A stretch of DNA of 64,000 bases from Nitrospirota bacterium (GTDB lineage Bacteria; Nitrospirota; Nitrospiria; SBBL01; JAADHI01), in the NCBI GenBank assembly GCA_029261165.1, contig JAJDBV010000001.1, positions 62,569-126,568 on the forward strand, read 5' to 3'. Made by a program: the position numbers and the translations under genes. This document shows positions 9,558-48,024 of this stretch, piece by piece. The notes below the pieces were generated by a model, which was not told the origin of the DNA, made no database searches, and saw only the letters and a program-made list of their open reading frames with translations. Position 1 is the first letter of the stretch. Every line of letters begins with the position of its first letter.

Positions 9558-9566
9558 GGATCCAAT

Positions 9567-10118: not shown

Positions 10119-10137
10119 AGGAGAAAGGAGCCTTTCC

Positions 10138-17514: not shown

Positions 17515-18178
17515 GGGTCGAGACAAGGTGAAAGGGCTGAACTGGAATCCAGCAGCAGTCTTTTTAGCCCTTTTCTCCGTGTTCTTGATGATTGCCGGTT
17601 TGCCGGAAACGTCCCTTGCGAAAGACCTTGGGACCTTCGGGGCGACCTATCCCATTGCAGAGCCGGACGCCCTCGATGAAATCGAGCGCCGCGTAAAAGA
17701 GGTCGATTGGAGTCAGGTCATCAACAAGAAAAACCTGGAAAAGGCCGTGAACGCTTACCGGCCCTCCGACCTGAAAAAGATCGGACGGGCCGAAAGAGAC
17801 CGGATCTTCAATGTCAATATGGCCTACACCCTGCAATTGGACATCCCCGATGGGAAGGGAGGCATCCTTTATCCACGTGGATACCGCTTCAACCCGCTTG
17901 AATATATCCATCTTCCAAATATTATCGTCATCATCAACGGGGATGATCCGGAACAGGTCGCCTGGTTTCTATCCTCCCGTTACGCGGACAGTTTCAAGGT
18001 CTCCCTTCTTTTGACGGAGGGGGACTATGCGCAACTTTCAGAACAGTTCAACCGTGCCGTTTATTACGCCGATGGGCGCCTGTTGAAACGGCTTAACATA
18101 CAGGCGGTTCCGTCTGTGGCCATGCAGAAAGGGACCCTCATGGAGGTTAAGGAAATTGCGATTCCTCAAAATAAATAA
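17486..18178 (+). CDS. traW: TraW-like pilus assembly protein
   Basis: 230 aa, signal peptide, DLGTFGATYPIAEPD motif as in F TraW (DLGTWGDTWPVKEPD). Confidence 0.7.
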   Translation: MTFITTYGLKGRDKVKGLNWNPAAVFLALFSVFLMIAGLPETSLAKDLGTFGATYPIAEPDALDEIERRVKEVDWSQVINKKNLEKAVNAYRPSDLKKIGRAERDRIFNVNMAYTLQLDIPDGKGGILYPRGYRFNPLEYIHLPNIIVIINGDDPEQVAWFLSSRYADSFKVSLLLTEGDYAQLSEQFNRAVYYADGRLLKRLNIQAVPSVAMQKGTLMEVKEIAIPQNK

Positions 18179-18179
18179 G

Positions 18180-19175
18180 ATGGGACTCTGCTCACTGGTC
18201 TTGTTCGCCATCCTCTTCAGTGCCGGTAAAGCCGATGCAGTCGGCTACGGCACACCACTCAATCCGGTGACTGATATCTGCTGGAACTGTGTGTTTCCGA
18301 TCAAGATTGCGGGGGTTACGGTCGTGCCCGGTGATGTCATGGATGCTCCCGATCCTGCGGTTGGCCCCATCTGTGTCTGTCCGGCACCCCCGCCGATCTT
18401 TTTGAGACCGGGCATCCCGATCAGTTTCTGGGAACCGGCCCGCTTTGTCGAAACGGTCAAGGATCCATTTTACTTTCCGAGCTTGGGCATCACGATGGGC
18501 AATCCAAAACCGGGGTTTCTAGGCGGCACGCATTCAGAGATCGGAAGCAGCAACCTGATTGATACCTCGACTTTTGCACAGGCGCACTATTTTATCTTTC
18601 CCGCATGGGCCTTGATGGAACTGCTGGTCGACTTCGTCTGTGTGGAGAGCAGCGGCTTCGATCTCGCCTATCTGACCGAGGTCGATCCCTTGTGGAACAA
18701 CGACATGCTGGCGTTCATCATCAATCCGGAGGCCCTCCTGTTCGCCAATCCGGTCGCCCAGATGTCCTGCATCGCGGACAGCGTGGCCTCAAACGCGGGT
18801 CTGCCCCTCAGCGTCCTCTACTGGTGCATGGGATCGTGGGGGAGCGCCTATCCTCTTACAGGACATGTAAATGACGATGCCTACGTCCAGGCCAATGCGG
18901 CCATCGCCGCCCGGATGATCTACAAGCTCTCGCGGGAGATGCTGGTCTGCGATACCGGGATCAACTTATGCGGCTGTGTCCCCACACCGATCTGGGTCAA
19001 GCACAACTACCGTCTCCATATCGCAAAACCGGTTCGGGATTTCACCTGTCATCCGATCGGGAGATCGAGCATGATCTGGGGCCAGGCGAAGAATCCACCC
19101 TTTTCCGCCGGGCCGAATGCAAGCGACAACTTTTTATGGATGATCTTCAGGAAGAGGGCCTGCTGCGCCTTTTAG
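18180..19175 (+). CDS. traU: TraU-like protein
   Basis: Signal peptide from ATG 18180. The conserved NPVTDICWNCVFPIKIAG motif is characteristic of TraU. Confidence 0.85.
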   Translation: MGLCSLVLFAILFSAGKADAVGYGTPLNPVTDICWNCVFPIKIAGVTVVPGDVMDAPDPAVGPICVCPAPPPIFLRPGIPISFWEPARFVETVKDPFYFPSLGITMGNPKPGFLGGTHSEIGSSNLIDTSTFAQAHYFIFPAWALMELLVDFVCVESSGFDLAYLTEVDPLWNNDMLAFIINPEALLFANPVAQMSCIADSVASNAGLPLSVLYWCMGSWGSAYPLTGHVNDDAYVQANAAIAARMIYKLSREMLVCDTGINLCGCVPTPIWVKHNYRLHIAKPVRDFTCHPIGRSSMIWGQAKNPPFSAGPNASDNFLWMIFRKRACCAF

Positions 19176-21832: not shown

Positions 21833-23263
21833 ATGGGCCGAATCTTTCTGACGATATTATTTCTTTTGATGACGCAATCGACAAGCTTCTCAGCCGGTTG
21901 GGTCGATGACTGGATCAACCAGAAGACCGTTGTCTCTCCCGGCTCTTTCAATGGGCAGAAGCGGGGTTACCTGAACGGCGGGAGTTTTTCCGCCCGCTGG
22001 TTCAACAGCAATGATTACCCGGTGTCGGTCAGTCCACCCAGGATCAAATCGGGTTGTGGCGGGATTGACGCCTTTGCCGGAGGGATCTCTTTTATGAATT
22101 TCGATCACCTCGTGAAAAAGCTACAAGCAATGGTGACCAATGCGCCCGCCGTCGCCTTCGACCTCGCCTTCAACGTCCTTTGTGAACCCTGCGCAAAGTC
22201 GATCAAATCCTTCGAGGCAATCACCGACACGCTCAACCAACTGCAATTTAATGACTGTCAGTCTTCGCAGGTCCTGGTCGCAAGGTCTTTCCAGGCGCTT
22301 GGATCAGATAACGGAAAGGTCCGGGCAATGGCGGAGAGTGATTTTTCTCTCACTTCAGGCGTCCAGGATCTTCGGAAGGATCTGACCGACATCTGGAGCG
22401 CCAACAACAATCAGCCGCAAACAAGCGATGCGACGCAGATTGCGGGCTGTCCTACAGATCTAAAAGATGTTTTTGCAACACCAGGGCGGACGGTCCTTGA
22501 AGGGATCGCGCTTAAGAAGAGTTATTCGACAACATACATCGATCTTGCCCGTGGTTTTACAGGTGATATCGAAATCTCCCAAATCACCTCTCCCAATGGC
22601 ACGGTTCAGATCGTTCCGCGGTTCATTCCCCCTTGTGAACAGAACAAGGCCGATTCCATCGATAACTTTTTTACAGGCCAGGCCTATCAACGGCCCTCGG
22701 ACGGCGGGACCTGCACGGTAATCACCGACGCCAATGCAAATCTCATTGCATGGGCAACAACGATCATGCAGGGGATCACCAATAAGATGGAGACCGGGAC
22801 ATCCTTGACGGCGACAGAGGTTGCCTTTATCGACAGTCTTCCGCTCCCAGTCTATTCAGCCCTCAAATTCGGCGTGGCGACCGATCAGACGGCGAACACC
22901 ATCGGGATGCTTTCCGAGGTCACGGCGCGGGCCTACGCCTTCAGCATGATGGCCGATCTTTACCATCTGACGACACAAGGCATCCATACCGCGCAGGCGA
23001 TCATCTCAAAGCAGGGCCAGTCAACTGGCCCGACCTGCCAAATGGACCTATTCGAACCCGCGATCCAATCGACGCATGAACTGACATTCCGCATTCATGA
23101 TTCATTAAAACGCCTGCAACGTGCTTATGCCTCAATGACCAGTGAGATCAACGCCATTATGGAGGTTTCAAACCGCTTCGATCAATTCAACACCACTGCG
23201 AGAGGAAGGCTTTCACAATTGTTCAATCCTTCCCTCGCCAACATGGCCCTTGGAGGAAATTAA
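21833..23263 (+). CDS. traH: TraH-like protein
   Basis: Signal peptide from ATG 21833 (AAAGGAG upstream). GCGGIDAFAGGISFMNFD motif as in TraH. Confidence 0.85.
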   Translation: MGRIFLTILFLLMTQSTSFSAGWVDDWINQKTVVSPGSFNGQKRGYLNGGSFSARWFNSNDYPVSVSPPRIKSGCGGIDAFAGGISFMNFDHLVKKLQAMVTNAPAVAFDLAFNVLCEPCAKSIKSFEAITDTLNQLQFNDCQSSQVLVARSFQALGSDNGKVRAMAESDFSLTSGVQDLRKDLTDIWSANNNQPQTSDATQIAGCPTDLKDVFATPGRTVLEGIALKKSYSTTYIDLARGFTGDIEISQITSPNGTVQIVPRFIPPCEQNKADSIDNFFTGQAYQRPSDGGTCTVITDANANLIAWATTIMQGITNKMETGTSLTATEVAFIDSLPLPVYSALKFGVATDQTANTIGMLSEVTARAYAFSMMADLYHLTTQGIHTAQAIISKQGQSTGPTCQMDLFEPAIQSTHELTFRIHDSLKRLQRAYASMTSEINAIMEVSNRFDQFNTTARGRLSQLFNPSLANMALGGN

Positions 23264-23267
23264 ACGA

Positions 23268-26200
23268 ATGCGTTTTAAGACCACATTGCTCTTTTGCTTT
23301 GCCCTCCTGATGGCTTCGGTCTCTCCGGCCTCGGCCCTGGAGATGGAATACTATACCTACAACGGCTTTGGTCCAGTCGTCAGTGCGTTCTCGAAAACCG
23401 CCCTGATCTTCAGCGACGCGGCCTATCGTGGGCTTTTTTTCACGGTGATCGTCATGGGGATCCTGTTCGGTGGCGCCGCAGTCTATTTTGCAAATCGGAG
23501 CGGGCGGCCTTCTCCTTTATCCTGGGTCGTCCCTGTCCTCTTCGGTGTGGTTTTCTATCTGGCATTGATCCTTCCGACCGGATCGCTGCATATCTATGAC
23601 CCAGTGAAAAACCAGTATCAGGAGGTCGCCGGTATCCCGGACGGCATTGTTCTCATTACCGGTACTTTGAACAAGATTCAGCGGGGCCTGGTCGATATCG
23701 TCTCGACAGCGGGTGATCCGGTCGGCTACCAGGCGCAGGCGGGAGGCGCCGGCTTCGATATGCTCCTGAATGTTCACTCCAAGGGGGTGCTTCTTGCGGA
23801 TCACTACATCCATCAATCGCTCAGAAAATATATCGAGGATTGCGTCTTTTTTGAGCTCATGAGGCCGGGAACGACACTCACGGTGAATCAATTCGCCAAC
23901 AACGCCGATTTCATTCCGTTCTTTGACGCGGCCGCCAATCCCGCGATTTTCACGGTCTTTTTTGAGGACGCCGTGCCGGAAGGGGTCACCATGACCTGTG
24001 CGGCCGCCGTCACAGAGATCAAGACGAAGATCACCGGTCCGGCACAGTTTGAAAATACGACCAAGGCGAGATGCGCGGAGGCCGGTTTCGATCCGACGAT
24101 CCCTGTTGAATATACGACCTGCAAATCGATGCTCTCGAACTTGGTTAGCTGGTTTGAAGGGGCCGCCTTTGATGTCACACAAATTTACCGCCAGAAATTG
24201 ATCGCAGAAGAGATCAATAATGTCGTCCTGGCGGCCAGTCCCGATACGGCAATTCAACTGCTCGGATCTCGAAATACGGGGACCGCAATGCTCTCCGCAG
24301 GCATGATGGCCAATGAGTGGATCCCGATCATCCGGGCGGTGACGACTGCGATTGCCATCGGCATCATCCCGATTCTGGTGATCTTTATCCCGACGCCGAT
24401 TTTCTTAAAAGCATTGTCTCTCATTGCCGGTTTTTTTATCTGGCTTGCCGCCTGGGGCGTGACCGATGCGATCGCGCATCAATTCGCGATCGATTATGCC
24501 GCCACCGTTTTCGAAGAGGTGAGGCAGTACCAACTGGGTCTGACGGCGATCTCTTCGTTTGGGACCGCCTCGCTTAAAACACTGGCCGCTTTCGGCGCCA
24601 TTCGTTGGTCCGGATTGATGTTGGCCACCGTGATCACCACCACGTTGATCCGTTTCGGGGGACATGCGCTCAGCTATCTGGCGGGACAACTGACGGCGAC
24701 ACCGAAACAAAAGGGGGAATCGGTCGGAGAACTGGCCAAACCGGAAGGGGCGGCCACGGCGCTTAAATCGCTTGAGGAGTCCCCTCCTGTGATGGCGAAT
24801 GCCCATAAATTTAACTTCAATCGAAGGATCAGTTCGAAGACGAGCCGGTTGGCCAAGGGGATCGGGGAAGGGATCGGATTCGGGACCCAGGAGCAGGGTT
24901 TTGCGACGGGACAGACAGAAGGGCAATTTGCGCGTGGCGCGGCGGTTGGGAAAGAACGGTTCGCTCAAGATGTTGCAGGCGGCGATGTGCCGGCCGCCGG
25001 AGAAGTGTCAGCCTACTTCCATGAGAGTTCACGTTTTGGACGGAGTGAAGGGGCGTTTCAATTGGGTAAGCAAGTATTCGGCATTGATACGCCGTCCGAG
25101 GCCGCATCTTTTGAGGCAACAGGAAAGTTGATTACACCCGAAATGGCGGCCTACGCGGAAAAGCAAGGATTCAGCGGTGTTGTTCCAGGGATGCACCTGA
25201 CCCATGCCGGGTTTAACCCGAAAACAGGGGAGGCCGCTTCGATGTCCTTTTCGGGACCCGTTACGAACGACAATCTCAATGCCATAAAAGACCTCGCAGA
25301 ACGGAACGGCCACGACAGCGCCTCTCAACTTTTGCAGCCCGGAATGATCGCGTCCTTCACGATCAATCCTCAGAACGGCAAAGGCACCTTTCATGCCACT
25401 GACAGCACCGCCGTGCAGAGTGAAGATTTTGGCGAAACAACTATTAATGCCGGCAAGGGGCTCACGGTCGATACACCCCAAGGGAGTTTTCACCTAAAGT
25501 CGGGAAAGGTTCAACAGGTTGGCGGACAGGTCTACATCAACGGCAGCACTGAAGATGGAAAAAAGGTTCAGCTCGAAGGAGCATTATCCGATGGTTATAC
25601 GGTGATTCCCGGGTTGAAGCAAAATAAAGACGGCACGGTCCAAATGAGTTCAAAACGTGGAGACTCGCTCTATGAATACCAATGGAAAGGGCTCCGGTCC
25701 ACGGAGGATGGCATGCTTCGAACCGGTCTTGTCAAAGACCGGGATGGAGACATCTCCCACATTGCGCTGAATCTCACACATGCGGAGACCCAGCAAGGGA
25801 TTCGCGGTTATGAAACACTCGATTCGGACGGTCTGGAAAAGTTAGCGGGTGTCGTGAGATCCGAGGGGGGACCGGTCAATGTCGCGGATACACTGGAGCA
25901 TCTTGCTTCGGAGGGAAGATCTGCAGACGTGGCATTCTCTAAAACGACAGGCGGAGACAGCGGATTCGGAACTTTGTCTGTGAATGCCGGAGGAAGCGCG
26001 ATAACACGAGACTTCTCGCTCTCACAAAGCGGATGGGAGACAATTTCCAAAGCCCACAGCAGCAGTTTGAGCGGGAGAAGGGATGTTTCAGAAGACGTGT
26101 CTAAGAGGTCCGTCGATCATGGCGTCAGTATCGGATCTGCCATGCAGATGGCTCTCAATAGAGATCCGGCGATTGCGTCATTTGTCTCGGATCCTGATAT

Positions 26201-26618
26201 TGCCAAGAACCAACCGAATACCTTTAATGCGAATGTCGCAACAACAGCCAGAAATCTTGCAAGCGATCTTGGGGGTTTTATAACGAAGAAGGGGGCAGAT
26301 ATTGGGCATCTAAGTGGGGAACTAGGGGTGCGTACAGCTATCGGGGGAGGTGGCAGTGTCGGGAAAATGTCAAGAGAGAGCGAAGTAACTGACCTCCTTA
26401 CCGGAGAATATGATCGGTTGATCCGAAATTCCTTCCAAGAAGCGAACGACCGAGGACTAAATAAATTGGAAACAGGAAAATTTATCAGCAGTAAAATTGG
26501 GGATTATACTCAACAAATTTATGACAAAACCAGGACATTAACAACTCAAGATTTTGGAGCCGATGCAGGAATTGGAGGGATTAAGAGGTTGGTGAATGAT
26601 CCATCAGACGATAAATAA
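23268..26618 (+). CDS. traG: TraG-like (F-type TraG) pilus assembly / mating-pair stabilisation protein
   Basis: About 1116 aa from ATG 23268. Signal peptide, a multi-TM N-terminal half and a large soluble C-terminal half. It is the last gene of the traF-H-G trio. Confidence 0.85.
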   Translation: MRFKTTLLFCFALLMASVSPASALEMEYYTYNGFGPVVSAFSKTALIFSDAAYRGLFFTVIVMGILFGGAAVYFANRSGRPSPLSWVVPVLFGVVFYLALILPTGSLHIYDPVKNQYQEVAGIPDGIVLITGTLNKIQRGLVDIVSTAGDPVGYQAQAGGAGFDMLLNVHSKGVLLADHYIHQSLRKYIEDCVFFELMRPGTTLTVNQFANNADFIPFFDAAANPAIFTVFFEDAVPEGVTMTCAAAVTEIKTKITGPAQFENTTKARCAEAGFDPTIPVEYTTCKSMLSNLVSWFEGAAFDVTQIYRQKLIAEEINNVVLAASPDTAIQLLGSRNTGTAMLSAGMMANEWIPIIRAVTTAIAIGIIPILVIFIPTPIFLKALSLIAGFFIWLAAWGVTDAIAHQFAIDYAATVFEEVRQYQLGLTAISSFGTASLKTLAAFGAIRWSGLMLATVITTTLIRFGGHALSYLAGQLTATPKQKGESVGELAKPEGAATALKSLEESPPVMANAHKFNFNRRISSKTSRLAKGIGEGIGFGTQEQGFATGQTEGQFARGAAVGKERFAQDVAGGDVPAAGEVSAYFHESSRFGRSEGAFQLGKQVFGIDTPSEAASFEATGKLITPEMAAYAEKQGFSGVVPGMHLTHAGFNPKTGEAASMSFSGPVTNDNLNAIKDLAERNGHDSASQLLQPGMIASFTINPQNGKGTFHATDSTAVQSEDFGETTINAGKGLTVDTPQGSFHLKSGKVQQVGGQVYINGSTEDGKKVQLEGALSDGYTVIPGLKQNKDGTVQMSSKRGDSLYEYQWKGLRSTEDGMLRTGLVKDRDGDISHIALNLTHAETQQGIRGYETLDSDGLEKLAGVVRSEGGPVNVADTLEHLASEGRSADVAFSKTTGGDSGFGTLSVNAGGSAITRDFSLSQSGWETISKAHSSSLSGRRDVSEDVSKRSVDHGVSIGSAMQMALNRDPAIASFVSDPDIAKNQPNTFNANVATTARNLASDLGGFITKKGADIGHLSGELGVRTAIGGGGSVGKMSRESEVTDLLTGEYDRLIRNSFQEANDRGLNKLETGKFISSKIGDYTQQIYDKTRTLTTQDFGADAGIGGIKRLVNDPSDDK

Positions 26619-26900: not shown

Positions 26901-27329
26901 ATGAGGTACCTATCTATAATATTTGCCGCAATACTCCTCCTTGCAATTCCCCGCATAGGTCACGCCTTTTGCTTTGAAGAGGCTGGAGGGATGTACGGGG
27001 TTTCACCGCGACTCCTCTGGGCCATTGCCAAAGTGGAATCCGACTTCAATCCGGATGCAATCAATCGAAACAGAAACGGGAGTTATGATGTCGGGCTCAT
27101 GCAGATTAATTCCTGGTGGGAAAAAAGGTTAGGGAATGACTTGTGGAAATCGTTAAAGAATCCCTGCCAGAACGTGAAAGTGGGGGCATGGGTGTTGGCA
27201 CAGTGCATTCAACGGTTCGGGCGCACATGGAAGGGGATCGGATGCTACAACACCTCCAACGACGCGAAGCGTGCAAAGTACGCGAAAAAAGTCTTTGCCA
27301 CTTTAAGGCAATTAAACAATATGAAATAG
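26901..27329 (+). CDS. Lytic transglycosylase (VirB1/P19-like)
   Basis: 142 aa, signal peptide, SLT catalytic region AIAKVESDFNPDAIN...GSYDVGLMQIN. Confidence 0.8.
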   Translation: MRYLSIIFAAILLLAIPRIGHAFCFEEAGGMYGVSPRLLWAIAKVESDFNPDAINRNRNGSYDVGLMQINSWWEKRLGNDLWKSLKNPCQNVKVGAWVLAQCIQRFGRTWKGIGCYNTSNDAKRAKYAKKVFATLRQLNNMK

Positions 27330-29211: not shown

Positions 29212-29406
29212 GATCAACCCGGTTGATTTTTAAACCCCTCCCTTTAATACGACCTTTCATGGTTCATTGGTGAAATATTATGGGCTCTTAGAGGTGATGT
29301 TAGGGTTTTGTGAAGTGTTGAACAGGAATCAAGAAAAGTCCAAAACTGTGGTTTGAGGCTAAAGATATTGGTATAAAAACAGGTTTTCTGCTGTTAGGAT
29401 GGGGGG

Positions 29407-29477
29407 TCCGGAGGCAAGAAGGGGGGGCGCGCCCGTGTCTGCTGACTGAGTCGGGAACGAATCTCCTTGCCTCCGGA
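29407..29477. repeat. 12-bp perfect inverted repeat between convergent gene ends
   Basis: TCCGGAGGCAAG (29407-29418) pairs with CTTGCCTCCGGA (29466-29477). It lies between the + strand cargo genes and the arsC stop. No U-tract. Confidence 0.5.
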
Positions 29478-29498
29478 AAAATGACCTTCTTTATCGGT

Positions 29499-29903
29499 TT
29501 ACTTCGACTTTAAAGACTCAATGAGCGCCTCGATCTTTTGACGAATTAGGTCTCTGACTTTAACAAACTGATCCATCGGCATTGTTTTTGGGTCTGGGAT
29601 CGCCCAATCTTCTCTTTGTTTGGCCCTGATAATAGGACAAGCATCTGCGCATCCCATTGTAACAACCCAATCGTATTCAATATCAGGAATCTCATCTAAG
29701 CCCTTAGAGCGGTGTCCGGTCAGGTCGTAGCCGATTTCTTTCATCGAAGTAACCGCCTTATCATTCACCTTTCCTGAGGGGCGGGATCCGCTGCTATAAG
29801 GATCGATGATATCTGCACCAAGCATCCTGGCGAATCCCTCCGCCATCTGGCTTCTACAGGCGTTTTCTACGCAGACGAACGAGACTGTTTTCTTTTGATT
29901 CAT
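29499..29903 (-). CDS. arsC: Arsenate reductase, LMW-PTP (thioredoxin-coupled type) family
   Basis: CX5R P-loop VCVENACRSQMAEG, TMGCADACP and DWAIPDP motifs. The start ATG 29903 forms an ATGA overlap with the aquaporin stop (alternative ATG at 29912). The 205-aa track ORF extension is rejected. Confidence 0.8.
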   Translation of the reverse strand: MNQKKTVSFVCVENACRSQMAEGFARMLGADIIDPYSSGSRPSGKVNDKAVTSMKEIGYDLTGHRSKGLDEIPDIEYDWVVTMGCADACPIIRAKQREDWAIPDPKTMPMDQFVKVRDLIRQKIEALIESLKSK

Positions 29904-30568
29904 TGGCAACATTCTTTTTCTTTGAGAGAACGGCATCCGATGACGGCGAGAAACGCTCCGGTTATGGGCGCAAAGATATAGATCCAAAGGGGTCGAAGAT
30001 GGCCGCTTACCAATGCCGGTCCGATTGAGCGTGCCGGATTCATTGACGCACCGGATATAGGACCGCCCAAAAAGGCTTCTAAAGCAACGACCCCGCCGAT
30101 CATAAGACCCGCCCATCCTTTTTTTTGATGTGGACTCGACGTCAGGACACAGATGGTGAAGATCAAAATCAAGGACAATAAAACTTCGAGCACGAACGAT
30201 TCTATTTCACTTCCTCTTGGTAAAGTCGCCCCAAGAGTGGGATGATCAAGAAATAAGAATGAGAGTGTTCCGCTGGCAGCAACTGCACCGATGAGTTGAC
30301 TGGTGACATAGGGGAACACCTTTTTTCTTGGAAATTGTTTTCCGTACCAGAGTGCGATAGTCACGGCGGGGTTGATGTGCGCCCCCGAGATTTCTCTGAA
30401 TAAGTAAATCATGATGCCGACTGCGAGACCGAAAGTGAGTGCGATACCGGCCTGTGTGATCAGACCTCGAGTGATATCATTGACGACTATCGCGGATGTG
30501 CCGGAAAAAACAAGCACGTATGTTCCAATGAACTCCGCAAGAAAGCTTTTAAACGTCGTCGGTTTCAT
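29900..30568 (-). CDS. MIP-family channel (aquaporin/aquaglyceroporin), likely As(III)-conducting
   Basis: 222 aa, six TM helices, two NPA boxes (HINPAVT, SMNPARS). Translationally coupled to arsC. Confidence 0.85.
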   Translation of the reverse strand: MKPTTFKSFLAEFIGTYVLVFSGTSAIVVNDITRGLITQAGIALTFGLAVGIMIYLFREISGAHINPAVTIALWYGKQFPRKKVFPYVTSQLIGAVAASGTLSFLFLDHPTLGATLPRGSEIESFVLEVLLSLILIFTICVLTSSPHQKKGWAGLMIGGVVALEAFLGGPISGASMNPARSIGPALVSGHLRPLWIYIFAPITGAFLAVIGCRSLKEKECCQ

Positions 30569-30601
30569 AGATCTCTCCTATACATTTACATTCATAAAAA
30601 G

Positions 30602-32095
30602 TCAGTCCATCTTGACCATATATTCATAGTGGTTGCCGGCCTCCCCTGAACCCCTCCCATAGTAATGCCATTTCGGGAAATTGAAATCGGATGTAATCGA
30701 GGAGGGTTCCAGAAGCACCGCTTCCAAGAATTCCTCGAGGTTATTGACATTGTAAATGTTCACTTCAAAACCCCATTCATCCATTTGGTCAAAAAAGGGC
30801 AGCATGTTCTCGGTATGCCAATTCATCGCAAAACGGTTAACCCCCCAGCTTCTATACATGTCAAGTATATCTTTTGCCTTCTCAGGCGTGCTTAAGGCAA
30901 AAGGTACCAAAAACTCGATCGGCATTTGTAATATGGCCTTGGGATATGTAATCGCTAATGTCTTGAAGCCTTGTTGCTGTACCTTTTCAACATCTCCATG
31001 AAACCACAAACGTGAAGCATCCAATTTATAATAATCGACCAATTCGAGAAGACGATCGATTACCATTCCGCCTTCTTTAAAGTCAAACTTAAGCGACTTC
31101 TCTGTCTTTGATAAGCGGTTTACGAAGGAATCTATGTGGAGCCACTCTTCGTCCTTCATCCGAGGCGTCGTATCGATATGATCATGTCTTAATATGATGT
31201 CATCCCCGTCCGGGGACATGCGGACGTCACATTCACCCCACGTGATATCAGAAGATAGAAACTGTCGAAGATTGATTTCGTCATTTACCCCATGCCAAAC
31301 GAATTGAATATGTTTCGGAAGCGATTTTTTGTCGATTAACTCAGTCAGGTCATACCTGCTTCCTTTGATGGCATTATAAGGGAGCCGGACTCTCTTCGAC
31401 TCAAAGATGGTGTCGGCATGTAACAGGAAGATCTCCTCTTCAGGATCAATCTTTGCGATTTCCTTTAGGTTTTCGGGCTCATTGTCGACGACCGCAAATA
31501 CACGATATCCGTTCTCTTGAAATTTGCGTATCCCATCGACTTTCGCTTCTTTTACGCTTTGATCCCATCCGTATGGGTTCATTTGCAACAACGAGTCGGA
31601 AAATTCAACCTTATGTGATTTTCCAAGCTGGTTGAGAGAAATCAGGGTTTCTGTCCGCACCGATTCCGGGCGTCCGGTGTTTAAACCGACAAAAGTATTC
31701 GGCTGGAGCTGAAACCATCTGATCACTTCAAGGACACCCTTAAAGGGTCTATGCGCATTCAATATAGATGCTTCCATCCAACGATTTTGTCTATACCATT
31801 CTAATATGTCGTTCTGTTGATCAAGTGCAATATGCATCTCAGACAAAAGGCGATCAACCTGGTTTTCATGGACTTTAATCTGAGAAATCTGTAGATCTTT
31901 AAAATAATGAGTGTGATGAAGTCGGTCATAAGCGGCCAGGATATTGCGTATCATATACCGCATATCAAGAATGGTGCCGTCAATATCAAATACGATAACC
32001 AGCTTCTCATCCGAGTGAAGATAGTGACTGTTTTCAAAATGAGAGGCCAGCAAACTCATCCAATTTTCTTTTTTCTTCTCCGTTTTCATTTTCAA
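30602..32095 (-). CDS. HAD-family phosphatase fused to a GDPD/PLC-like phosphodiesterase-like domain
   Basis: 497 aa. HAD motif I VFDIDGT, motif II GLNTGRP, motif IV-like AVVDNEPEN. The C-terminal half, WHGVND...ECDVRMSPDGDDIILRHDH, resembles the HRG...E.DV...DG..V..HD signature of glycerophosphodiesterases. Assignment of the second domain is tentative. Confidence 0.5.
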   Translation of the reverse strand: MKMKTEKKKENWMSLLASHFENSHYLHSDEKLVIVFDIDGTILDMRYMIRNILAAYDRLHHTHYFKDLQISQIKVHENQVDRLLSEMHIALDQQNDILEWYRQNRWMEASILNAHRPFKGVLEVIRWFQLQPNTFVGLNTGRPESVRTETLISLNQLGKSHKVEFSDSLLQMNPYGWDQSVKEAKVDGIRKFQENGYRVFAVVDNEPENLKEIAKIDPEEEIFLLHADTIFESKRVRLPYNAIKGSRYDLTELIDKKSLPKHIQFVWHGVNDEINLRQFLSSDITWGECDVRMSPDGDDIILRHDHIDTTPRMKDEEWLHIDSFVNRLSKTEKSLKFDFKEGGMVIDRLLELVDYYKLDASRLWFHGDVEKVQQQGFKTLAITYPKAILQMPIEFLVPFALSTPEKAKDILDMYRSWGVNRFAMNWHTENMLPFFDQMDEWGFEVNIYNVNNLEEFLEAVLLEPSSITSDFNFPKWHYYGRGSGEAGNHYEYMVKMD

Positions 32096-32181
32096 TATTT
32101 CTCCAATGATCGACAGACCCGTTCTGATCGGCGGGTGGGTAGGATTCCCACCCGCCGAAAATTAATCATGAACCGTGAAGA

Positions 32182-33363
32182 TTAAAATACATACTGCATC
32201 TGAACGAAGACCTCATCTAGATCCTTTCCAGGTACCCCATCCACATCCTCTCCGATTCGGTAGGTTCCCTGGAGCTTGATGTCATGCTTCTTGACGAAAA
32301 AGTAGTTCAAACCGACAGAGGTTCGGGTCCACTCATCAAGATAACCATCGGCATCCTGGGATTCATATCCGGCAACCACCTCCATCCGGCTCGGAATCAC
32401 CATATATCCGGCTTCGACCGCAAAGTTTTCCAAATCGGTGCTGCCGCTTTTAAAAATACCCTTCGTGACGGTACTGTCGACCGTATCGGCATTGAACCGG
32501 TTGTATTCAGCATCGATGGAAAGCCCCTTCACCCGAAGGGCAGCACTTATTTCAAAGCCGGTCACTGAATCAACATCTGGTTTACCAGCGCCGTCATCAA
32601 CGCCATTTGTGGTACGGGTATTATTGTCATCATCGTTATCCCAGGAAAAGCCGGCGACGCCGATCGTCGCCTTCAGATCCTGCTTAAAATCCCCCTGAGA
32701 CATCTTTAATTGTCCAAAAGGGTGGAAATCAATCCGGCCGCCAACAATCCAGCCCTCGTTAAAGTCATTATTTTTGTTGACCGGCGTGTCAAAGTCGAGT
32801 TTTTTGGCATCCGGATCGATCGACGCCGATGCGAACGATAGACCGTAAGTCACCTTATGCCCGTCCAAAAATCCTCCGGTGGCATGAATCCCTAAGTTCC
32901 TGTCCGGAGTGCCGTAGTTATGGTCTCCGACAAAGGTACGCTCCACGAGCTGCTGTTTTTTCGAAGAAGTTAAGCTTTCGCGAGAGAACATCACCTTGGC
33001 ATTTCCCACAGTAAGCTTTGCATGTTTAAACCCTTTATACTGGAGATAAGCGTCCTTTACTGCGAGTTCATTCCCATCCTCTGCCTTTCCCATATCCCAT
33101 TGAAATTTGCCGGTCCAGTCTTTATGCAGGCTCCCCTCAATGTACGGCCGAAAACGCCGAAAAAACACTTCGTCCGTAGATTCTCCAACTTCAGGATCCT
33201 TTTGATGGTATTGAAGCTGGATCCGCCCCCCCATCTTCACAAACTTATCGCCGTCCTTAAAAACGGTGATTCCTGCCGCTGTCGAGAGAGAGGGTGAGCC
33301 CGTTAAGATTAACCCGCTGACCGCAATTGTAACGACTATCCTTCCAATCAAATTTTTGAACAC
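32182..33363 (-). CDS. Phosphate-selective porin O/P (OprO/OprP)-like outer-membrane porin
   Basis: 393 aa, signal peptide. FFRRFRPYIEGSL..DW..KFQWD and VKDAYLQYKG...VGNAKVMFSRESLTSS motifs fit the Porin_O_P pattern. C-terminal aromatic residue (YVF). Confidence 0.7.
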   Translation of the reverse strand: MFKNLIGRIVVTIAVSGLILTGSPSLSTAAGITVFKDGDKFVKMGGRIQLQYHQKDPEVGESTDEVFFRRFRPYIEGSLHKDWTGKFQWDMGKAEDGNELAVKDAYLQYKGFKHAKLTVGNAKVMFSRESLTSSKKQQLVERTFVGDHNYGTPDRNLGIHATGGFLDGHKVTYGLSFASASIDPDAKKLDFDTPVNKNNDFNEGWIVGGRIDFHPFGQLKMSQGDFKQDLKATIGVAGFSWDNDDDNNTRTTNGVDDGAGKPDVDSVTGFEISAALRVKGLSIDAEYNRFNADTVDSTVTKGIFKSGSTDLENFAVEAGYMVIPSRMEVVAGYESQDADGYLDEWTRTSVGLNYFFVKKHDIKLQGTYRIGEDVDGVPGKDLDEVFVQMQYVF

Positions 33364-33442
33364 TGGAACCTCCTCTTTTATTTTATATATTTTCCTTCTT
33401 CCCGGTTGTCATCGTGAAACAGTTTGGATTCTGCATGAACGT

Positions 33443-33481
33443 TGTTAAGAAGATGTGGCTGGATTGTTAAGATTGTGTGAA
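33443..33481 (-). promoter_or_regulatory. Pho-box array (4 hexamers, 11-bp period) upstream of the porin operon
   Basis: The plus strand shows TGTTAA (33443), TGTGGC (33454), TGTTAA (33465), TGTGAA (33476). Read on the minus strand these are TTCACA TTAACA GCCACA TTAACA. The array lies 80-118 bp upstream of the porin start. Confidence 0.6.
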
Positions 33482-33509: not shown

Positions 33510-35285
33510 TTAGCGATACGAAGGGATAGTAAATGTAAAAGTCGTCCCTTTACCCGATTGGCTGCTGACGGAGATTTCGCCATTGTGGGCTTGAACGATA
33601 TGTTTGACGATCGAAAGACCGAGACCGGTACCACCCAATTCTCTGGAGCGGGCCTTATCAACACGGTAAAAGCGTTCGAATATGCGCGGAAGGTCTTTAT
33701 CAGGTATCCCAATGCCGGTGTCGGCGACACTGACTTTTATATGGGCATCACCTTCTTCTGCAGACACAACAACGCAACCACTCGGAGGGGTGTATTTGAG
33801 GGCGTTTTCGATCAGGTTGAATAATACCTGCGCCAGCCTTGTTTCATCCGCAATAACTTGATGTAACTTCTCGGATACCTTTGTCCTGATCGTAATTGAC
33901 TTCTTGACCGCCTGCATGTCGAGGCTTGCGACGACCCTTTTAATGATGGGGAAAAGAGGGCATGGGTTGAGATCCATATTCAGCTTTCCGGATTCGATCT
34001 TTGACAGATTCAAGAGGTCATCCACCAGCCGTGCCAGGCGCTCTGCCTCCGTGTGGACGATCTTAATGAAATCCCTTGCATGCGCCTGATCATCAAGCGC
34101 CCCATCCAGCAGGGTCTCGGCATAGCCCTGGATACTGGAGATCGGCGTTCTTAATTCGTGGGAAACATTCGCGACAAAATCTTGGCGAATTTTTTCGAGT
34201 CGGCGCAGGTTCGTATTATCGTGAAAGACAAGGATCGCCCCTTCCCGTTGGTTGTCTCTCAGAACAGGTGTTGCATAAACCGATAAGACCCTATCTTCCG
34301 GTGCGGCGAGTGAAATTTCACAGGCGTCTAAGTGGGATTGACTTTTAATAGCGCAATCGATAGTCTCTGCGATTTCAAGATTGCGAATGACCTCAATCGA
34401 ATTTTTGCCGGTGACATCATGTTTGATCTGGAAAATATCTTTGAGCGCCCGGTTCATGAGTAAGATCTTCCCTTTTGGATCGACAACAAGAACCCCTTCA
34501 AGCATGCTCAGCAAAACTGCTTCAAGGCGTGAGCGACTGATGTTCATCTCCTGTAAGCGGCTTTCGAGTTGTTCGGACATCTCATTGAAGGCATGGCCAA
34601 GATCACCGATTTCGTCATTTAAAAAGAAGGTATCTATTTTTGAAAAGTCTCCTTGAGCGATCCGTTTAGCGATCTTTGAGATTTCTCTGATCGGTTTAGA
34701 AATATAAGCGGATGCAAAAAAGGTGATAATGATCGCCATGATAAAGACCGCAAAGAGTGAAAAAGCGATTATCCTTTTCAGTTGTTTTGAGATCAGATCG
34801 ATATCTGAGAGAGGGAGGGAAAGCCGGATGACGCCACCCCTGCGTTGACTGCTGAACGGCATCGCCATGTAAAGCATGTTGGTATTGATTGTTGAGCTGA
34901 AGCGCTTACTTTCGCCAAAGCCCGATTTTAAGGCATCTTGGACTTCAGGGCGATTCAGGTGATTTTCAACCTGTTGCAGCGCCCCGCCGTCAAGTTCGGA
35001 ATCTCCCAAAACCTTTCCAGTGAGGGAAATAATCGTTACTCTTAAATTGAGATCTTGTCCGATCCGGTCGGTGATTTGATCAAACACCTCTGGTGTCTCT
35101 TGATCGTTCTTCATGTTTTCGAGACTATGTTTCGCCAGTGTGGTCTTTTTTTTGAGATCGGTTTGAATATTCTGGTAGGTATAACTCCGCAGGTTTTGAT
35201 TAAGATAGAGGTATCCGACCGACAGGATAACCGCAGTGATGATGGTAAAGGTCAGCGTGATCTTATAATGGGTATTGATTCTCAT
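33510..35285 (-). CDS. phoR: Phosphate regulon sensor histidine kinase PhoR-like
   Basis: 591 aa. Two TM helices flank a periplasmic domain, followed by HAMP, PAS, HisKA (SHELRTP) and HATPase_c (GGTGLGLSIV) domains. Adjacent to pstSCAB. Confidence 0.8.
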   Translation of the reverse strand: MRINTHYKITLTFTIITAVILSVGYLYLNQNLRSYTYQNIQTDLKKKTTLAKHSLENMKNDQETPEVFDQITDRIGQDLNLRVTIISLTGKVLGDSELDGGALQQVENHLNRPEVQDALKSGFGESKRFSSTINTNMLYMAMPFSSQRRGGVIRLSLPLSDIDLISKQLKRIIAFSLFAVFIMAIIITFFASAYISKPIREISKIAKRIAQGDFSKIDTFFLNDEIGDLGHAFNEMSEQLESRLQEMNISRSRLEAVLLSMLEGVLVVDPKGKILLMNRALKDIFQIKHDVTGKNSIEVIRNLEIAETIDCAIKSQSHLDACEISLAAPEDRVLSVYATPVLRDNQREGAILVFHDNTNLRRLEKIRQDFVANVSHELRTPISSIQGYAETLLDGALDDQAHARDFIKIVHTEAERLARLVDDLLNLSKIESGKLNMDLNPCPLFPIIKRVVASLDMQAVKKSITIRTKVSEKLHQVIADETRLAQVLFNLIENALKYTPPSGCVVVSAEEGDAHIKVSVADTGIGIPDKDLPRIFERFYRVDKARSRELGGTGLGLSIVKHIVQAHNGEISVSSQSGKGTTFTFTIPSYR

Positions 35286-35467: not shown

Positions 35468-35506
35468 TTCACAGAAACTTGACAAATCCTTCATTTTTTC
35501 ACCACA
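35468..35506 (+). promoter_or_regulatory. Pho-box array upstream of pstS
   Basis: TTCACA (35468), TTGACA (35479), TTCATT (35490), ACCACA (35501), at exact 11-bp spacing. The array ends 74 bp upstream of the pstS ATG. Confidence 0.65.
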
Positions 35507-35579: not shown

Positions 35580-36629
35580 ATGAAAATAATAAAACTTTTA
35601 GTGCTGGTCCTGACCGTTTCTTCTTTTGCGATCGGTGCTGTTCCGGCGCAAGCCGCACGAGACCATATCAGTATTGTCGGTTCTTCGACGGTTTATCCCT
35701 TTGCGACGGTCGTTGTGGAACGATTTGGAAAAACCACCTCTTTTAAGACACCGAAGGTTGAATCGACCGGATCGGGCGGCGGTTTTAAGCTATTCTGTGC
35801 CGGGGTCGGTGTTGGGCATCCAGATATCACAAATGCATCGCGCCGCATCAAAAAATCGGAATATGAAAAATGCCAGAAGAATGGTGTTCGTGAGATCGTT
35901 GAGGTCAAAATCGGCTATGATGGCATTGCGATCGCCAACTCAAAAAAAGCGGCAAAATTTTCGCTTGAGCTACGTGATCTTTTCCTGGCATTGGCCAAAA
36001 ATGTCCCCGATCCCAAAGGGGGAGAACAACTGATCGAGAACCCTTATAAAACGTGGAAAGAGGTCAATCCAAAACTTCCGAATCAGAAGATCGAAGTCCT
36101 CGGACCGCCGCCGACCTCCGGCACGCGCGACGCCTTTGCGGAGCTCGCCCTGGAGGGAGGATGCAAAACATTTAAATGGATCGCGGCGATGAAGAAAAAG
36201 GATAAAAAGGCCTACAAACGGCTCTGTCACACGATTCGAGAGGATGGGGCCTATATCGAAGCCGGAGAGAATGACAATCTGATTGTCCAGAAACTACAGG
36301 CAAATTCGAATGCGCTCGGTGTTTTTGGTTTCAGTTTCCTCGATCAAAACCTCGACAAGGTTCAAGGGTCGTCGATCAAAGGGGTGAAACCGAGGTTTGA
36401 GTCGATTGCCGACGGCAGCTATCCGATTTCCCGTCCCCTCTATTTTTATGTTAAAAAGGCGCATATCAATGTCATTCCGGGGATGAAGGAGTACCTCTCC
36501 GAATTTACCAGTGAAAAGGCCTGGGGTGATGAAGGATACCTGGCAGATCGCGGTTTGATTCCGATGCCGAAAATGGAACGGAGAAAATTTTTAAGCGATG
36601 TCAAAGGCTTGAAAGCGCTTAAAATGTAA
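35580..36629 (+). CDS. pstS: Phosphate ABC transporter substrate-binding protein PstS
   Basis: Signal peptide from ATG 35580 (AAGGAGAG upstream). GSSTVYPF...GSGGG motifs of the PstS (PBP-like-2) family. First gene of pstSCAB. Confidence 0.9.
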   Translation: MKIIKLLVLVLTVSSFAIGAVPAQAARDHISIVGSSTVYPFATVVVERFGKTTSFKTPKVESTGSGGGFKLFCAGVGVGHPDITNASRRIKKSEYEKCQKNGVREIVEVKIGYDGIAIANSKKAAKFSLELRDLFLALAKNVPDPKGGEQLIENPYKTWKEVNPKLPNQKIEVLGPPPTSGTRDAFAELALEGGCKTFKWIAAMKKKDKKAYKRLCHTIREDGAYIEAGENDNLIVQKLQANSNALGVFGFSFLDQNLDKVQGSSIKGVKPRFESIADGSYPISRPLYFYVKKAHINVIPGMKEYLSEFTSEKAWGDEGYLADRGLIPMPKMERRKFLSDVKGLKALKM

Positions 36630-40325: not shown

Positions 40326-41024
40326 TTATTGGGAAGCTTGCCCTTCATAGAACCGATAGCCAATCCCTCTGACCGTTTCAATCAGTTTTCCCATCTTTCC
40401 CAGCTTTTGTCTGAGGTTGCGGATGTGGGTATCGACTGTTCGAGTGGTTACATCCGCTTCGATATCCCAAACATCATCCAGGAGCATTTCTCTGGGTTGT
40501 ACTCTCCCTTCTCGTTGCACGAGCGTCAGAAGCAGGTTGAACTCCATAAGTGTCAGTGTGACCTCTTGATCAGAAACAGTGACGCGATGGCGGGGAATAT
40601 CGATCTTAAGTTGACCAAATTCAAGGATATCCTTGCCACCATCATCATCCATGCCGCGTTTTAATATCGCCTTGACTCTCAAGACCAGTTCCCGAGTGCT
40701 GAAAGGTTTCACGACATAGTCATCTGCGCCCAACTCAAACCCGACAATTCTGTCGATCTCTTCCCCCTTAGCGGTTAACATGATGACCGGAAGATGAGAG
40801 CGCCTATGGTCCCGTTTGATTTCTTTGCAGATCTGAAGCCCATCCATTCCCGGGAGCATAATATCCAAAATAATCAAATCGATGACCTCCTGAGAGAGCT
40901 TTTCCAGCCCTTCTTCGCCGCTTGTGGCGGCGACACAATGGAATCCAGATTTTTCCAAGTTATATTTGACCAGCTTTGAGAGGTGCTTATCATCTTCAAT
41001 AATCAAGATCTTATTTTTAGACAT
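40326..41024 (-). CDS. phoB: Phosphate regulon response regulator PhoB (OmpR family)
   Basis: Starts MSKNKILIIEDD at 41024 (GGAGAAACA upstream). Receiver domain with DLIILDIMLPGMDG, and a winged-helix C-terminus ending GIGYRF. Confidence 0.85.
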   Translation of the reverse strand: MSKNKILIIEDDKHLSKLVKYNLEKSGFHCVAATSGEEGLEKLSQEVIDLIILDIMLPGMDGLQICKEIKRDHRRSHLPVIMLTAKGEEIDRIVGFELGADDYVVKPFSTRELVLRVKAILKRGMDDDGGKDILEFGQLKIDIPRHRVTVSDQEVTLTLMEFNLLLTLVQREGRVQPREMLLDDVWDIEADVTTRTVDTHIRNLRQKLGKMGKLIETVRGIGYRFYEGQASQ

Positions 41025-41104
41025 TGTTTCTCCTTGCCAGGCTCTACTGCGGGTCATAATATCGAGGGCTTATCGTGGCGTATTACAGAGATTCTGTCAA
41101 CCGG

Positions 41105-41143
41105 TTCACAAGAATTTAACTTTCCCTTCACAAAACCATAACT
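41105..41143 (+). promoter_or_regulatory. Pho-box array upstream of psiE (shared divergent region with phoB)
   Basis: TTCACA (41105), TTAACT (41116), TTCACA (41127), ATAACT (41138) at exact 11-bp spacing. A TATATT -10-like element follows. The psiE ATG is at 41186. Confidence 0.6.
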
Positions 41144-41185
41144 TCATTGGTTTATATTTCCCATTATCACAAAGAGGAGAAAAAC

Positions 41186-41629
41186 ATGGAGGATCCCATT
41201 CAAGATGTATCGGTCATCAGCACGGCCGACCTTTCCCGATTATTTTCACAGGCGCTTCGCATCTTATTGTTTGCGCTGATCGGAATTATCCTGATCGCGA
41301 TCGGCGGCGGAGTCATCAAAACCTTTCTTGGCCTACAGCATCTGCTCTCGGAACAACTCGACGTGGCGTTGCGGCGGTTTCTGGTTGATGTTCTGATCAT
41401 CCTGGCACTCGTGGAGGTCTTCAATGCCTCGCTGACTTATTTCGCAGAAGGGCGGGTTAAGGTCACTTTTATCGTCGATACCGTCCTGGTGGTTATGCTG
41501 AGTGAAATGATTGCGCTTTGGTTCAGCGGGGGAGAGTTAACGCGCTTTATAGTCATTACCCTTTGTTTGGTCACCCTCGGTCTCATCCGGATCATCGCAG
41601 TACGGTTCTCCCCCGATTTAATAAAATAA
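41186..41629 (+). CDS. psiE: PsiE-like phosphate-starvation-inducible membrane protein
   Basis: 147 aa from ATG 41186 (AGAGGAGA upstream). Four TM helices with the LVEVF...YFAEGRVKV...VD layout of the PsiE family. Pho-box array upstream. Confidence 0.6.
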   Translation: MEDPIQDVSVISTADLSRLFSQALRILLFALIGIILIAIGGGVIKTFLGLQHLLSEQLDVALRRFLVDVLIILALVEVFNASLTYFAEGRVKVTFIVDTVLVVMLSEMIALWFSGGELTRFIVITLCLVTLGLIRIIAVRFSPDLIK

Positions 41630-45260: not shown

Positions 45261-45299
45261 TTCACGCAAAGTTCACATTGCCTTGATCCTGTCTCAATA
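45261..45299 (+). promoter_or_regulatory. Pho-box-like array upstream of the 45346 gene
   Basis: TTCACG (45261), TTCACA (45272), TTGATC (45283), TCAATA (45294) at 11-bp spacing. The first two hexamers are strong and the last two are weak. Confidence 0.4.
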
Positions 45300-47262: not shown

Positions 47263-48024
47263 TCAACATTTGCATAAGTGCCACCTTAGATAGTCTTTCG
47301 TTTGTTGCTGATATGGATTTGAAAAAACATTTTCACTCATCCCATGTTCAATAAGTTTCCCTTCACAAATAAAAACAACATCATCAGCGATTTTTTTTGC
47401 CTGATCCAATTTATGGGTCACGATAACAATCGTCAAATTTCCGCTTAATCGCCCGACCAGTTCTTCAATGGCACTTGTGGAGGTGGGGTCCAGTGAGGAG
47501 GTGGGCTCATCCATAAGTAATACCCTGGGTTCAACCGCCAATGCCCTGGCGATGGAAAGCCGCTGCTGTTGTCCCTGTGAGAGTTCCAGGGCGGAACGGT
47601 TTAGTTTGTCCTTTACCTCTTCCCATAAAGATACGGCCTTTAGCATTTCTTCTACAATCCGCGGAAATTCGTATTTCCTTCCGGAGCAGAGGTGTCTTAC
47701 CCCAAAGAGGACATTGTCATAAATAGACTTCGGAAAAATACAGGGTTTTTGGAAAACCATGCCCACGTTCTGGCGGAGGAGGGGAACTTTTGTGCCATTG
47801 TTATAGATATTTTCATCGTCAAAAAAGACTTCACCCCTGAGTCGAAAACATGGAATATGGTCATTCATCCGGTTCAGAGTGCGTAGCAGTGTACTTTTCC
47901 CGGCGCCTGATGGACCGATAATAGAGGTGACCTTTCCTTTATCAAAGTTCAGACTGACATTTTTCAAAACCGGTGACGTCCCATAATCGATGGAAACATC
48001 TTTCAAGGTAAAAAGGGGCTTCAT
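47263..48024 (-). CDS. pstB: Second PstB-type ABC ATPase
   Basis: 253 aa. GPSGAGKST, LNRMND, LSQGQQQRL, LLMDEPTS. Confidence 0.85.
   Translation of the reverse strand: MKPLFTLKDVSIDYGTSPVLKNVSLNFDKGKVTSIIGPSGAGKSTLLRTLNRMNDHIPCFRLRGEVFFDDENIYNNGTKVPLLRQNVGMVFQKPCIFPKSIYDNVLFGVRHLCSGRKYEFPRIVEEMLKAVSLWEEVKDKLNRSALELSQGQQQRLSIARALAVEPRVLLMDEPTSSLDPTSTSAIEELVGRLSGNLTIVIVTHKLDQAKKIADDVVFICEGKLIEHGMSENVFSNPYQQQTKDYLRWHLCKC

Follow-up and report, generated by a model that had tools for sequence, protein, structure and literature searches.

In a 64-kb stretch of DNA from a Nitrospirota bacterium (GenBank contig JAJDBV010000001.1, positions 62,569 to 126,568; this whole stretch is called the window), four open reading frames (ORFs) lie together on the minus strand and span positions 29499-33363. 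Read from the promoter onwards, they encode a predicted OprO/OprP-type porin, a fusion of a HAD domain with a phosphodiesterase-like domain, a channel of the MIP family and a low-molecular-weight protein tyrosine phosphatase (LMW-PTP) of the arsenate reductase type, ArsC. The ORF coordinates agree with the layout given in an earlier note on this DNA (minus strand, gaps of 86 and 33 nt, and an ATGA overlap), and Pfam profiles matched all four of the families it had named (porin, HAD, MIP and ArsC). The genes belong to a larger cluster in the order arsC, aqpN (the MIP gene), fusion, porin and phoR, followed by pstS1CAB, phoB and psiE. We propose, with a probability of about 0.7, that the four genes are one PhoB-activated transcription unit within this Pho cluster, and that arsenate detoxification is coupled through it to phosphate starvation.

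The MIP and arsC genes overlap by ATGA, with the arsC ATG at 29903-29901 and the MIP TGA at 29902-29900, and 33 nt separate the fusion gene from the MIP gene. The gap of 86 nt between the porin and fusion genes is counted from a TTG start. Homologues and public gene calls place the start of the fusion at the ATG at 32089, which gives a protein of 495 aa and a porin-fusion gap of 92 nt. The public NCBI call for arsC is a 108-aa version that probably starts at the internal Met27 and so would be missing the catalytic CX5R loop; the 134-aa start, which overlaps the MIP stop codon, agrees with the homologues. The porin was matched by the Pfam profile Porin_O_P (PF07396, E 4e-16, 59.6 bits against a gathering score of 20.9). 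This family membership is in line with the OprP-like porin described earlier and makes the protein a probable member of the OprO/OprP family with putative anion selectivity. Table 1 lists the features of the window.

Table 1. Features of the window (positions are those of the whole 64-kb stretch)
Feature	Position	Strand	Remarks
Porin gene	32182-33363	-	Porin_O_P; signal peptide, C-terminal Phe
Fusion gene	30602-32095 (TTG start); 30602-32089 (ATG start)	-	Two-domain cytoplasmic enzyme
MIP channel gene (aqpN)	29900-30568	-	222 aa; AqpN/NIP-like
arsC	29499-29903	-	134 aa; LMW-PTP type
Pho-box array of porin	33443-33481	-	TTCACA-N5-TTAACA-N5-GCCACA-N5-TTAACA, 11-bp phase
Candidate -10 hexamer of porin	33428-33433	-	CAGAAT, 9 nt after the array
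Hairpin in porin-fusion gap	32128-32158	-	GC-rich; 12-bp stem, 7-nt loop, no T tract
Structured element at 3' end of unit	29400-29482	-	~80 nt; 17-bp interrupted stem, conserved loop sequences
phoR-like sensor histidine kinase gene	33510-35285	-	Directly upstream of porin, same strand; NCBIfam PnpS 450 bits, PhoR-type models; Pfam domains
Pho-box array of pstS1CAB	35468-35506	+	Then 9 nt and -10-like TATTGT
pstS1CAB operon	pstS 35580-36629, then pstC, pstA, pstB to 40313	+	Divergent
OmpR-family response regulator gene (phoB)	40326-41057	-	Top match TIGR02154 (PhoB), 244 bits, below cutoff; Pfam
Pho-box array of psiE	41094-41143	+	Five repeats, then 9 nt and TATATT
psiE	41147-41629	+	PsiE, PF06146
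Relic Pho-box promoter	29276-29314	-	Downstream of arsC; relic box at 29298-29314, -10 hexamer decayed, no gene follows
Pho-box-like repeats of NTP-transferase gene	45261-45277	+	
NTP-transferase gene	46018-47031	+	PF00483
Second pst operon, pstS2C2A2B2	47263-50600	-	Compact
ArsR/SmtB-family regulator gene	50665-50979	-	104 aa; 64 nt upstream of second pst operon; vicinal Cys96-Cys97 near C-terminus
Palindrome ATGTGTATACAT	51007-51018		Adjoins TATAAT beside the ArsR-family gene
F-type conjugation block	1-27329		
Coupling protein gene	4465-6258		Conjugation block
TraC gene	12588-15077		Conjugation block
TraU gene	18156-19175		Conjugation block
Large TraG-like gene	23142-26618		Conjugation block
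Lytic transglycosylase gene	26901-27329		Conjugation block

To look for Pho boxes, four TTNACA hexamers at an 11-bp phase were scored at ~128,000 positions on both strands of the window. The highest score, 18/20, was that of the array upstream of the porin gene, and the next-ranking sites lay upstream of psiE and pstS. Dimers of the form TTNACA-N5-TTNACA with at most one mismatch were found 10 times in the window compared to 3.2 times expected, a count reached in 0 of 100 shuffles. Only two dimers were perfect, one in the porin promoter and one in the pstS promoter. The porin, pstS and psiE promoters have one geometry, in which the last repeat is followed by 9 nt and a -10-like hexamer. The same geometry was observed at the porin promoters of four related loci (L085, L165, L166 and L168) and at the promoter of an NTP-transferase gene in L168. 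No TTNACA-type site was detected before the fusion, MIP or arsC gene in the window scan. An array only before the porin gene, and the placing of the unit under Pho control, had both been put forward in the earlier note; the window scan supports the first, and the geometry common to the pstS and psiE promoters and the four relatives' porin promoters is consistent with the second. The fit of the porin promoter to the Pho type is as good as can be shown from sequence.

If the three downstream genes (fusion, MIP and arsC; the trio) are to share this promoter, transcripts must pass the hairpin in the porin-fusion gap. The 101-nt region around it folds at -36.6 kcal/mol (z -3.4). Hairpins stand at the same position in L085, L165, L166, L167 and L168 with differing sequences, and a T tract is lacking in every genome compared. 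The distance from the hairpin to the fusion ATG is 38 nt in the window, which leaves little room for a separate promoter, and nothing resembling a sigma-70 promoter was flagged in this interval. Given this short spacing and the missing T tract, read-through is the simplest expression route for the trio, which would then be expressed by transcripts that pass the hairpin. The likely role of the hairpin itself is partial termination or mRNA stabilisation, and it probably lowers downstream expression of the trio.

The arrangement was also found beyond the window. Protein searches reached the relatives L085, L165 and L166/L167, giving five trio-bearing loci with the window counted. These four further contigs, which represent three distinct arrangements, all repeat the order Pho box, porin, hairpin, fusion, MIP, arsC. 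L085 reads phoR, Pho box, porin, hairpin, fusion, MIP, LMW-PTP; L165 and L166/L167 read phoB, phoR, Pho box, porin, hairpin, fusion, MIP, LMW-PTP and then phoX and psiE. The MIP and LMW-PTP genes of the relatives overlap (by ATGA in L165 and L166/L167), and their fusion-MIP gaps are 1-136 nt. The relatives' porin is of another family (Porin_5), so that the arrangement has been kept with the porin exchanged. The trio-less relative L168, whose PstS is 89% identical to that of the window, has a Pho-box Porin_O_P gene. Among named sequences, the nearest PstS homologues came from gammaproteobacterial MAGs and from short contigs labelled as a cyanobacterium.

The end of the unit is marked by a structured element that folds at -42.8 kcal/mol (z -3.6). 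It is present in L166 (10686-10766), L165 (9854-9934), L085 (9086-9170) and L168 (~8105-8180, minus strand), with the invariant blocks TCCGG.GGCA, GCAGAC and CCC, and with the window counted it closes the unit, be it porin or trio, in five genomes. Its loops are more conserved than a plain terminator needs. Rfam gave no family in the window and none for this element. In L168 a stretch of ~60 nt separates the hairpin from the 3' element, and a Pho box and the NTP-transferase gene come next. The window and the remaining relatives carry the trio exactly between the porin hairpin and the 3' element. This presence or absence between two fixed points suggests that the trio behaves as a module, present or absent as a block, behind a Pho-driven porin.

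The same observations can be read differently. Only the porin might be Pho-controlled, with the hairpin as its terminator and the trio as an inserted module that has its own weak or arsenic-responsive promoter, possibly acting through the ArsR-family regulator encoded in the window. The strength of the hairpin and its place directly 3' of the porin gene fit this alternative, as do the trio-less porin unit of L168, which a hairpin closes, and the presence or absence of the trio as a block. We nevertheless regard it as unlikely. Besides the missing T tract, the short spacing and the lack of a flagged promoter there, the palindrome beside the ArsR-family gene is absent near the cluster, and in every trio-bearing genome the trio stands behind a Pho-box porin gene, with phoX and psiE following in L165-L167. 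Moreover, a Scalinduaceae genome has a fusion gene with its own Pho box, which scores 18/20.

The ArsR-family gene, a divergent one, came to light when the DNA preceding pstS2 was read; tblastn with ArsR, ArsM-like and DUF6428 representatives gave no match in the window. Its discovery qualifies the earlier statement that no arsB, acr3 or arsR is adjacent: no ars gene adjoins the unit, but a regulator of the ArsR/SmtB family lies 17 kb off. Since the palindrome beside the ArsR-family gene does not recur near the porin-arsC cluster, ArsR control of aqpN-arsC was dropped as the main model. The regulator gene precedes the second pst operon, which is possibly an arsenic- or metal-controlled phosphate uptake system, the reverse of Pho-controlled arsenic genes.

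We then considered what the channel may conduct. The MIP protein was matched by PF00230 (E 6e-53) and has two NPA motifs. Its closest solved structure was rice NIP2;1/Lsi1 (E 4e-33, ungapped). NIP2;1 scored 118 bits, AqpM 97, GlpF 89 and AqpZ 84, with animal aquaporins also below NIP2;1, and GlpF structures matched only half of the protein. NIP2;1 is an arsenite and silicic-acid channel. The pore filter, read off the NIP2;1 alignment, is F46/A165/A174/R180. The GlpF-type filter is W/G/F/R and the filter of AqpZ-type water channels is F/H/T/R. The F-A-A-R filter was invariant in 24 homologues and present in 54 of 61 metagenomic relatives, and it is common to MIPs near an ArsR regulator (13 loci) and near an ArsM-like methyltransferase (11 loci). 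A strict water channel was rejected, as the His and Thr of the water-channel filter are both Ala, invariantly, and the NCBIfam aquaporin Z score of 126 is under the cutoff of 256. A GlpF-type AqpS was likewise rejected on the filter. By sequence comparison, the protein is assigned to the AqpN/NIP-like clade (bioRxiv 10.1101/351064). The analysis of the selectivity filter that the earlier note had recommended accordingly returned a wide filter and not that of a strict water channel. A C-terminal cytoplasmic motif, C-R-x-x-x-E-x-x-C-C (C212, C220 and C221), is invariant in the close MIP subfamily; a CC-containing tail occurs in 22 of 61 AqpN homologues and marks a subclade. This Cys tail could serve to bind As(III) or to gate the channel.

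The arsC product was matched by Pfam LMWPc (E 4e-20), and all of its significant Protein Data Bank (PDB) matches were arsenate reductases (Synechocystis, pI258, B. subtilis and Corynebacterium). The P-loop C11-VENAC-R17-S18 aligned with C10-TGNSC-R16 of pI258, and C85/C89 and D104-P aligned with C82/C89 and D105. The LMW-PTPs encoded beside AqpN have the CX5R(S/T) loop in 35 of 35 cases and a distal Cys pair in 30 of 35. With the LMWPc match, the CX5R loop, the distal Cys pair and the DP aspartate, the LMW-PTP-type ArsC named at the outset appears to be a sound assignment. For the AqpS/ArsC logic that had been proposed for the pair, the pairing of a channel with a reductase, the arsenate-reductase residues and the wide filter all stand; the channel, being AqpN/NIP-like, is not of the AqpS clade.

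To see how general the pairing is, 80 metagenomic AqpN loci were surveyed, of which 51 had enough flank for an LMW-PTP test and 44 had at least 3 kb of flank for a pst test. An LMW-PTP gene lay within 300 nt of the AqpN gene on the same strand in 27 of the 51 loci, and pst genes lay within 6 kb in 8 of the 44. Gene orders varied. L090 has phoB-phoR-arsC-aqpN-DUF6428-pstSCAB-phoU on one strand, L126 has pstSCABB-phoB-aqpN, and L124, L133 and L161 have arsR- or arsM-associated pstS-aqpN-arsC. By our own estimate, chance would bring pst genes this close in less than 1% of cases for a genome of a few Mb with one or two pst operons. The rationale that Pho control makes sense since phosphate uptake admits arsenate, offered in the earlier note, gains support from these varied pst-linked loci. 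In the distant pst-linked loci L090, L106, L126 and L151, the TTNACA scan gave no Pho-box hits. This is probably due to a different Pho-box consensus, as L090 has an E. coli-like CTGTCAC box before pstS.

These counts bear on two further explanations. First, the MIP channel and the LMW-PTP might serve phosphate scavenging, with the channel moving the glycerol or polyol of the HAD-GDPD (glycerophosphodiester phosphodiesterase) fusion enzyme and the LMW-PTP acting as a phosphatase. The fusion and MIP genes do adjoin in 5 of 5 trio-bearing loci, NIP-type channels conduct glycerol (bioRxiv 10.1101/351064), and the LMW-PTP fold is a phosphatase fold. However, the fusion gene occurs without a MIP neighbour in 80 genomes, while the MIP gene has an LMW-PTP neighbour in the 27 loci above; the LMW-PTP bears the distal Cys pair typical of thiol-cascade arsenate reductases; and the same MIP subfamily is encoded beside ArsR, the ArsM-like methyltransferase and DUF6428. 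We consider this explanation improbable. Second, the channel might be mainly an inward route for neutral solutes such as As(III) or Sb(III), with gene mobility having brought it among Pho genes to no adaptive end. MIP channels work in both directions, S. meliloti AqpS gives sensitivity to external arsenite (PMC6205960), and the region borders a conjugative element and is rearranged. Against this, the independent recurrences in the 8 of 44 loci differ in gene order and porin family, a pattern that chance placement is insufficient to produce, and we judge this explanation the least probable of the three alternatives, and very unlikely.

The fusion enzyme has no signal peptide. Its N-terminal half was matched by HAD/Acid_phosphat_B (PF03767, 30.6 bits against a cutoff of 27), and the HAD motif DxDxT, present as D35-I-D37-G-T39, was invariant in the alignment of homologues. 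Conserved residues of the C-terminal half are H266, E286, D288, H302, D303 and K334/D336/K338. An AlphaFold model (pLDDT 88.9) was compared with known structures using Foldseek, which returned more than 25 GDPD chains with a probability of 1.0, E values of 7e-7 to 1e-5 and target-normalised TM scores of 0.55-0.68. Despite weak scores, the E-x-D...H-D motif is in register with GDPD, and some fusion homologues carry PF10223. By fold and motif, the second domain would be a phosphodiesterase-like TIM barrel of the GDPD fold. The phosphodiesterase assignment made in the earlier note is upheld at the level of the fold but not by a significant sequence-profile match.

More than 1500 homologues of the fusion were found, and the best 120 were 53-67% identical and came from many phyla. 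Proximity of the fusion gene to pst genes was also seen in other phyla, and it adjoins them in L010, L011, L023 and L062. It was tried as an anchor of the arsenic association and rejected, having no MIP neighbour in the 80 species genomes. In Chloroflexota, Actinomycetota and other phyla (L004-L076), the neighbours of the fusion gene encode CUT1-type ABC permeases, a classical GDPD and inositol monophosphatase, as well as a GFO/IDH/MocA dehydrogenase, a xylose-isomerase-like TIM barrel and an IolD-like TPP enzyme. This suggests substrates of the glycerophosphoinositol or inositol-phosphate type. The HAD-GDPD fusion, which has no known function, is likely a phosphate-starvation enzyme.

Some neighbouring features were also recorded. 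The relic Pho-box promoter downstream of arsC is homologous to the Pho box of the NTP-transferase gene in L168 and L085, and it stands where L165 has the Pho box of phoX, a gene that the window lacks. As its -10 hexamer has decayed and no gene follows the relic box, this looks like a rearrangement breakpoint near 29230. The NTP-transferase gene has Pho-box-like repeats in the window and in L085 (9296-9345, gene at 9363-10379) and also in L168, and it may be an unrecognised Pho-regulon member. The first pst operon encodes unusually long proteins (PstC 476, PstA 418 and PstB 305 aa, compared to 300, 281 and 253 aa for the second), and in the relative L168 PstC and PstA have DUF3708 and DUF3333 extensions. 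The F-type conjugation block lies close to the Pho cluster and indicates an integrative conjugative element or a plasmid-derived region.

Arsenate enters cells via phosphate transporters, and the risk is highest when phosphate is scarce. In the mechanism we propose, PhoR would phosphorylate PhoB when phosphate is scarce, and PhoB would bind the four TTNACA repeats, which would replace the -35 element, so that transcription would start upstream of the porin gene. The porin would let phosphate and organophosphate anions cross the outer membrane. Part of the transcripts would pass the hairpin, and the trio would be expressed at a lower level that is still tied to phosphate status. In the cytoplasm, the GDPD-like domain of the fusion would cut a phosphodiester and the HAD domain would dephosphorylate the product, releasing phosphate. 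Arsenate carried in by high-affinity phosphate uptake would be reduced from As(V) to As(III) by the ArsC-type reductase, and As(OH)3 would exit down its gradient through the AqpN pore, which is predicted to be widened by the change of His/Thr to Ala/Ala. An arsenic sensor would be superfluous, since exposure arises from the very condition that would induce the unit. Gene content, motifs, conservation and fold were observed; PhoB binding, passage of transcripts through the hairpin, the substrates, co-transcription, phosphate induction and the direction of As(III) flux are points that we infer.

Several points weigh against Pho-coupled arsenate detoxification by this unit. The strong hairpin could stop most transcripts after the porin, and in the trio-less L168 it stands at the end of the porin unit. 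An ArsR-family regulator is encoded elsewhere in the window, and arsenic-dependent control of aqpN-arsC is possible. The GDPD assignment lacks a significant match at sequence level: there was no Pfam GDPD match and no PDB profile match, and alignment by hhalign to four GDPDs from neighbouring genes did not reach significance (probability 1.9%). The distal Cys pair of the reductase is C-X3-C as opposed to C-X6-C in pI258, with a loop three residues shorter, and the protein scored under the NCBIfam equivalog cutoffs (TIGR02691, 78.1 against 174.3; TIGR02689, 92.8 against 157.6). Because of these scores, it was filed as an arsenate-reductase-like LMW-PTP and no subfamily was given. Finally, as MIP channels conduct in both directions, the predicted channel could also admit external As(III).

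Earlier evidence for phosphate/arsenic coupling was mostly expression data or arsenic islands with extra pst genes. Here the coupling is legible from DNA and recurs in several uncultured lineages, offering a model of arsenic resistance that would do without an arsenic sensor. AqpN, the bacterial sister group of plant NIPs, appears in it as a Pho-regulon member. As a tentative extension, which we hold to be less likely than not to apply in full, the trio may plug in behind Pho-regulated porins of different families as a nutrient-gated, and not toxicant-gated, arsenate resistance. It may pair with the ArsR-fronted second pst operon as a cross-wired phosphate/arsenate circuit, and As(III) made by the reductase might reach the pore by way of the Cys tail.

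Comparison with known systems sets the locus in context. No paper in the searchable literature described aqpN-arsC in a Pho-box operon alongside a porin and a phosphate-scavenging enzyme. The E. coli Pho regulon includes phoE and ugpBAECQ, which provide an anion porin and a cytoplasmic glycerophosphodiester phosphodiesterase. Both are found in a published list of the regulon (PMC3834237). The unit resembles them in its putative Pho-linked anion porin and phosphodiesterase-like enzyme. It differs in that the phosphodiesterase-like domain is joined to a HAD phosphatase domain, is only a distant relative of GDPD and is encoded together with arsenic genes. Arsenic islands also carry pst/pho genes (PMC3834237), and PhoB controls the arsenite oxidase genes aioBA (PMC4563254). 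In these cases, and putatively here, the linkage between arsenic and phosphate genes is physical as well as regulatory, with Pho boxes before an arsenic gene. Unlike the present locus, where arsenate-detoxification genes lie inside a Pho-regulon cluster, the islands concern arsenite oxidation with extra pst copies. In Crocosphaera watsonii, arsB is induced at phosphate limitation, according to a citation of Dyhrman and Haley (2011) in PMC11665274. There too, phosphate stress is proposed to switch on arsenic defence; that work concerns the physiology of an efflux-pump gene, whereas here the gene is a channel gene and the putative wiring was read from promoter and operon structure.

The closest functional parallel is the S. 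meliloti operon arsR-aqpS-arsC-arsH, in which ArsC makes As(III) and the MIP channel AqpS releases it (PMC6205960). In both systems a MIP channel would take the place of ArsB/Acr3, and no efflux pump is adjacent. The S. meliloti channel is GlpF-type and its operon includes arsR; here the channel is AqpN/NIP-like with an F-A-A-R filter, there is no adjacent ArsR, and a Pho box is present. Channel-reductase fusion proteins are known from Salinispora tropica (Wu, Song and Beitz 2010, as cited in PMC6205960). The MIP channel and ArsC are tightly coupled here as well, through the ATGA overlap, but as two polypeptides, and a conserved cytoplasmic tail rich in Cys is part of the channel itself. As in the AqpN clade at large, the best similarity is to NIPs, and the neighbours of the subfamily include ArsR, an ArsM-like methyltransferase and ArsC.

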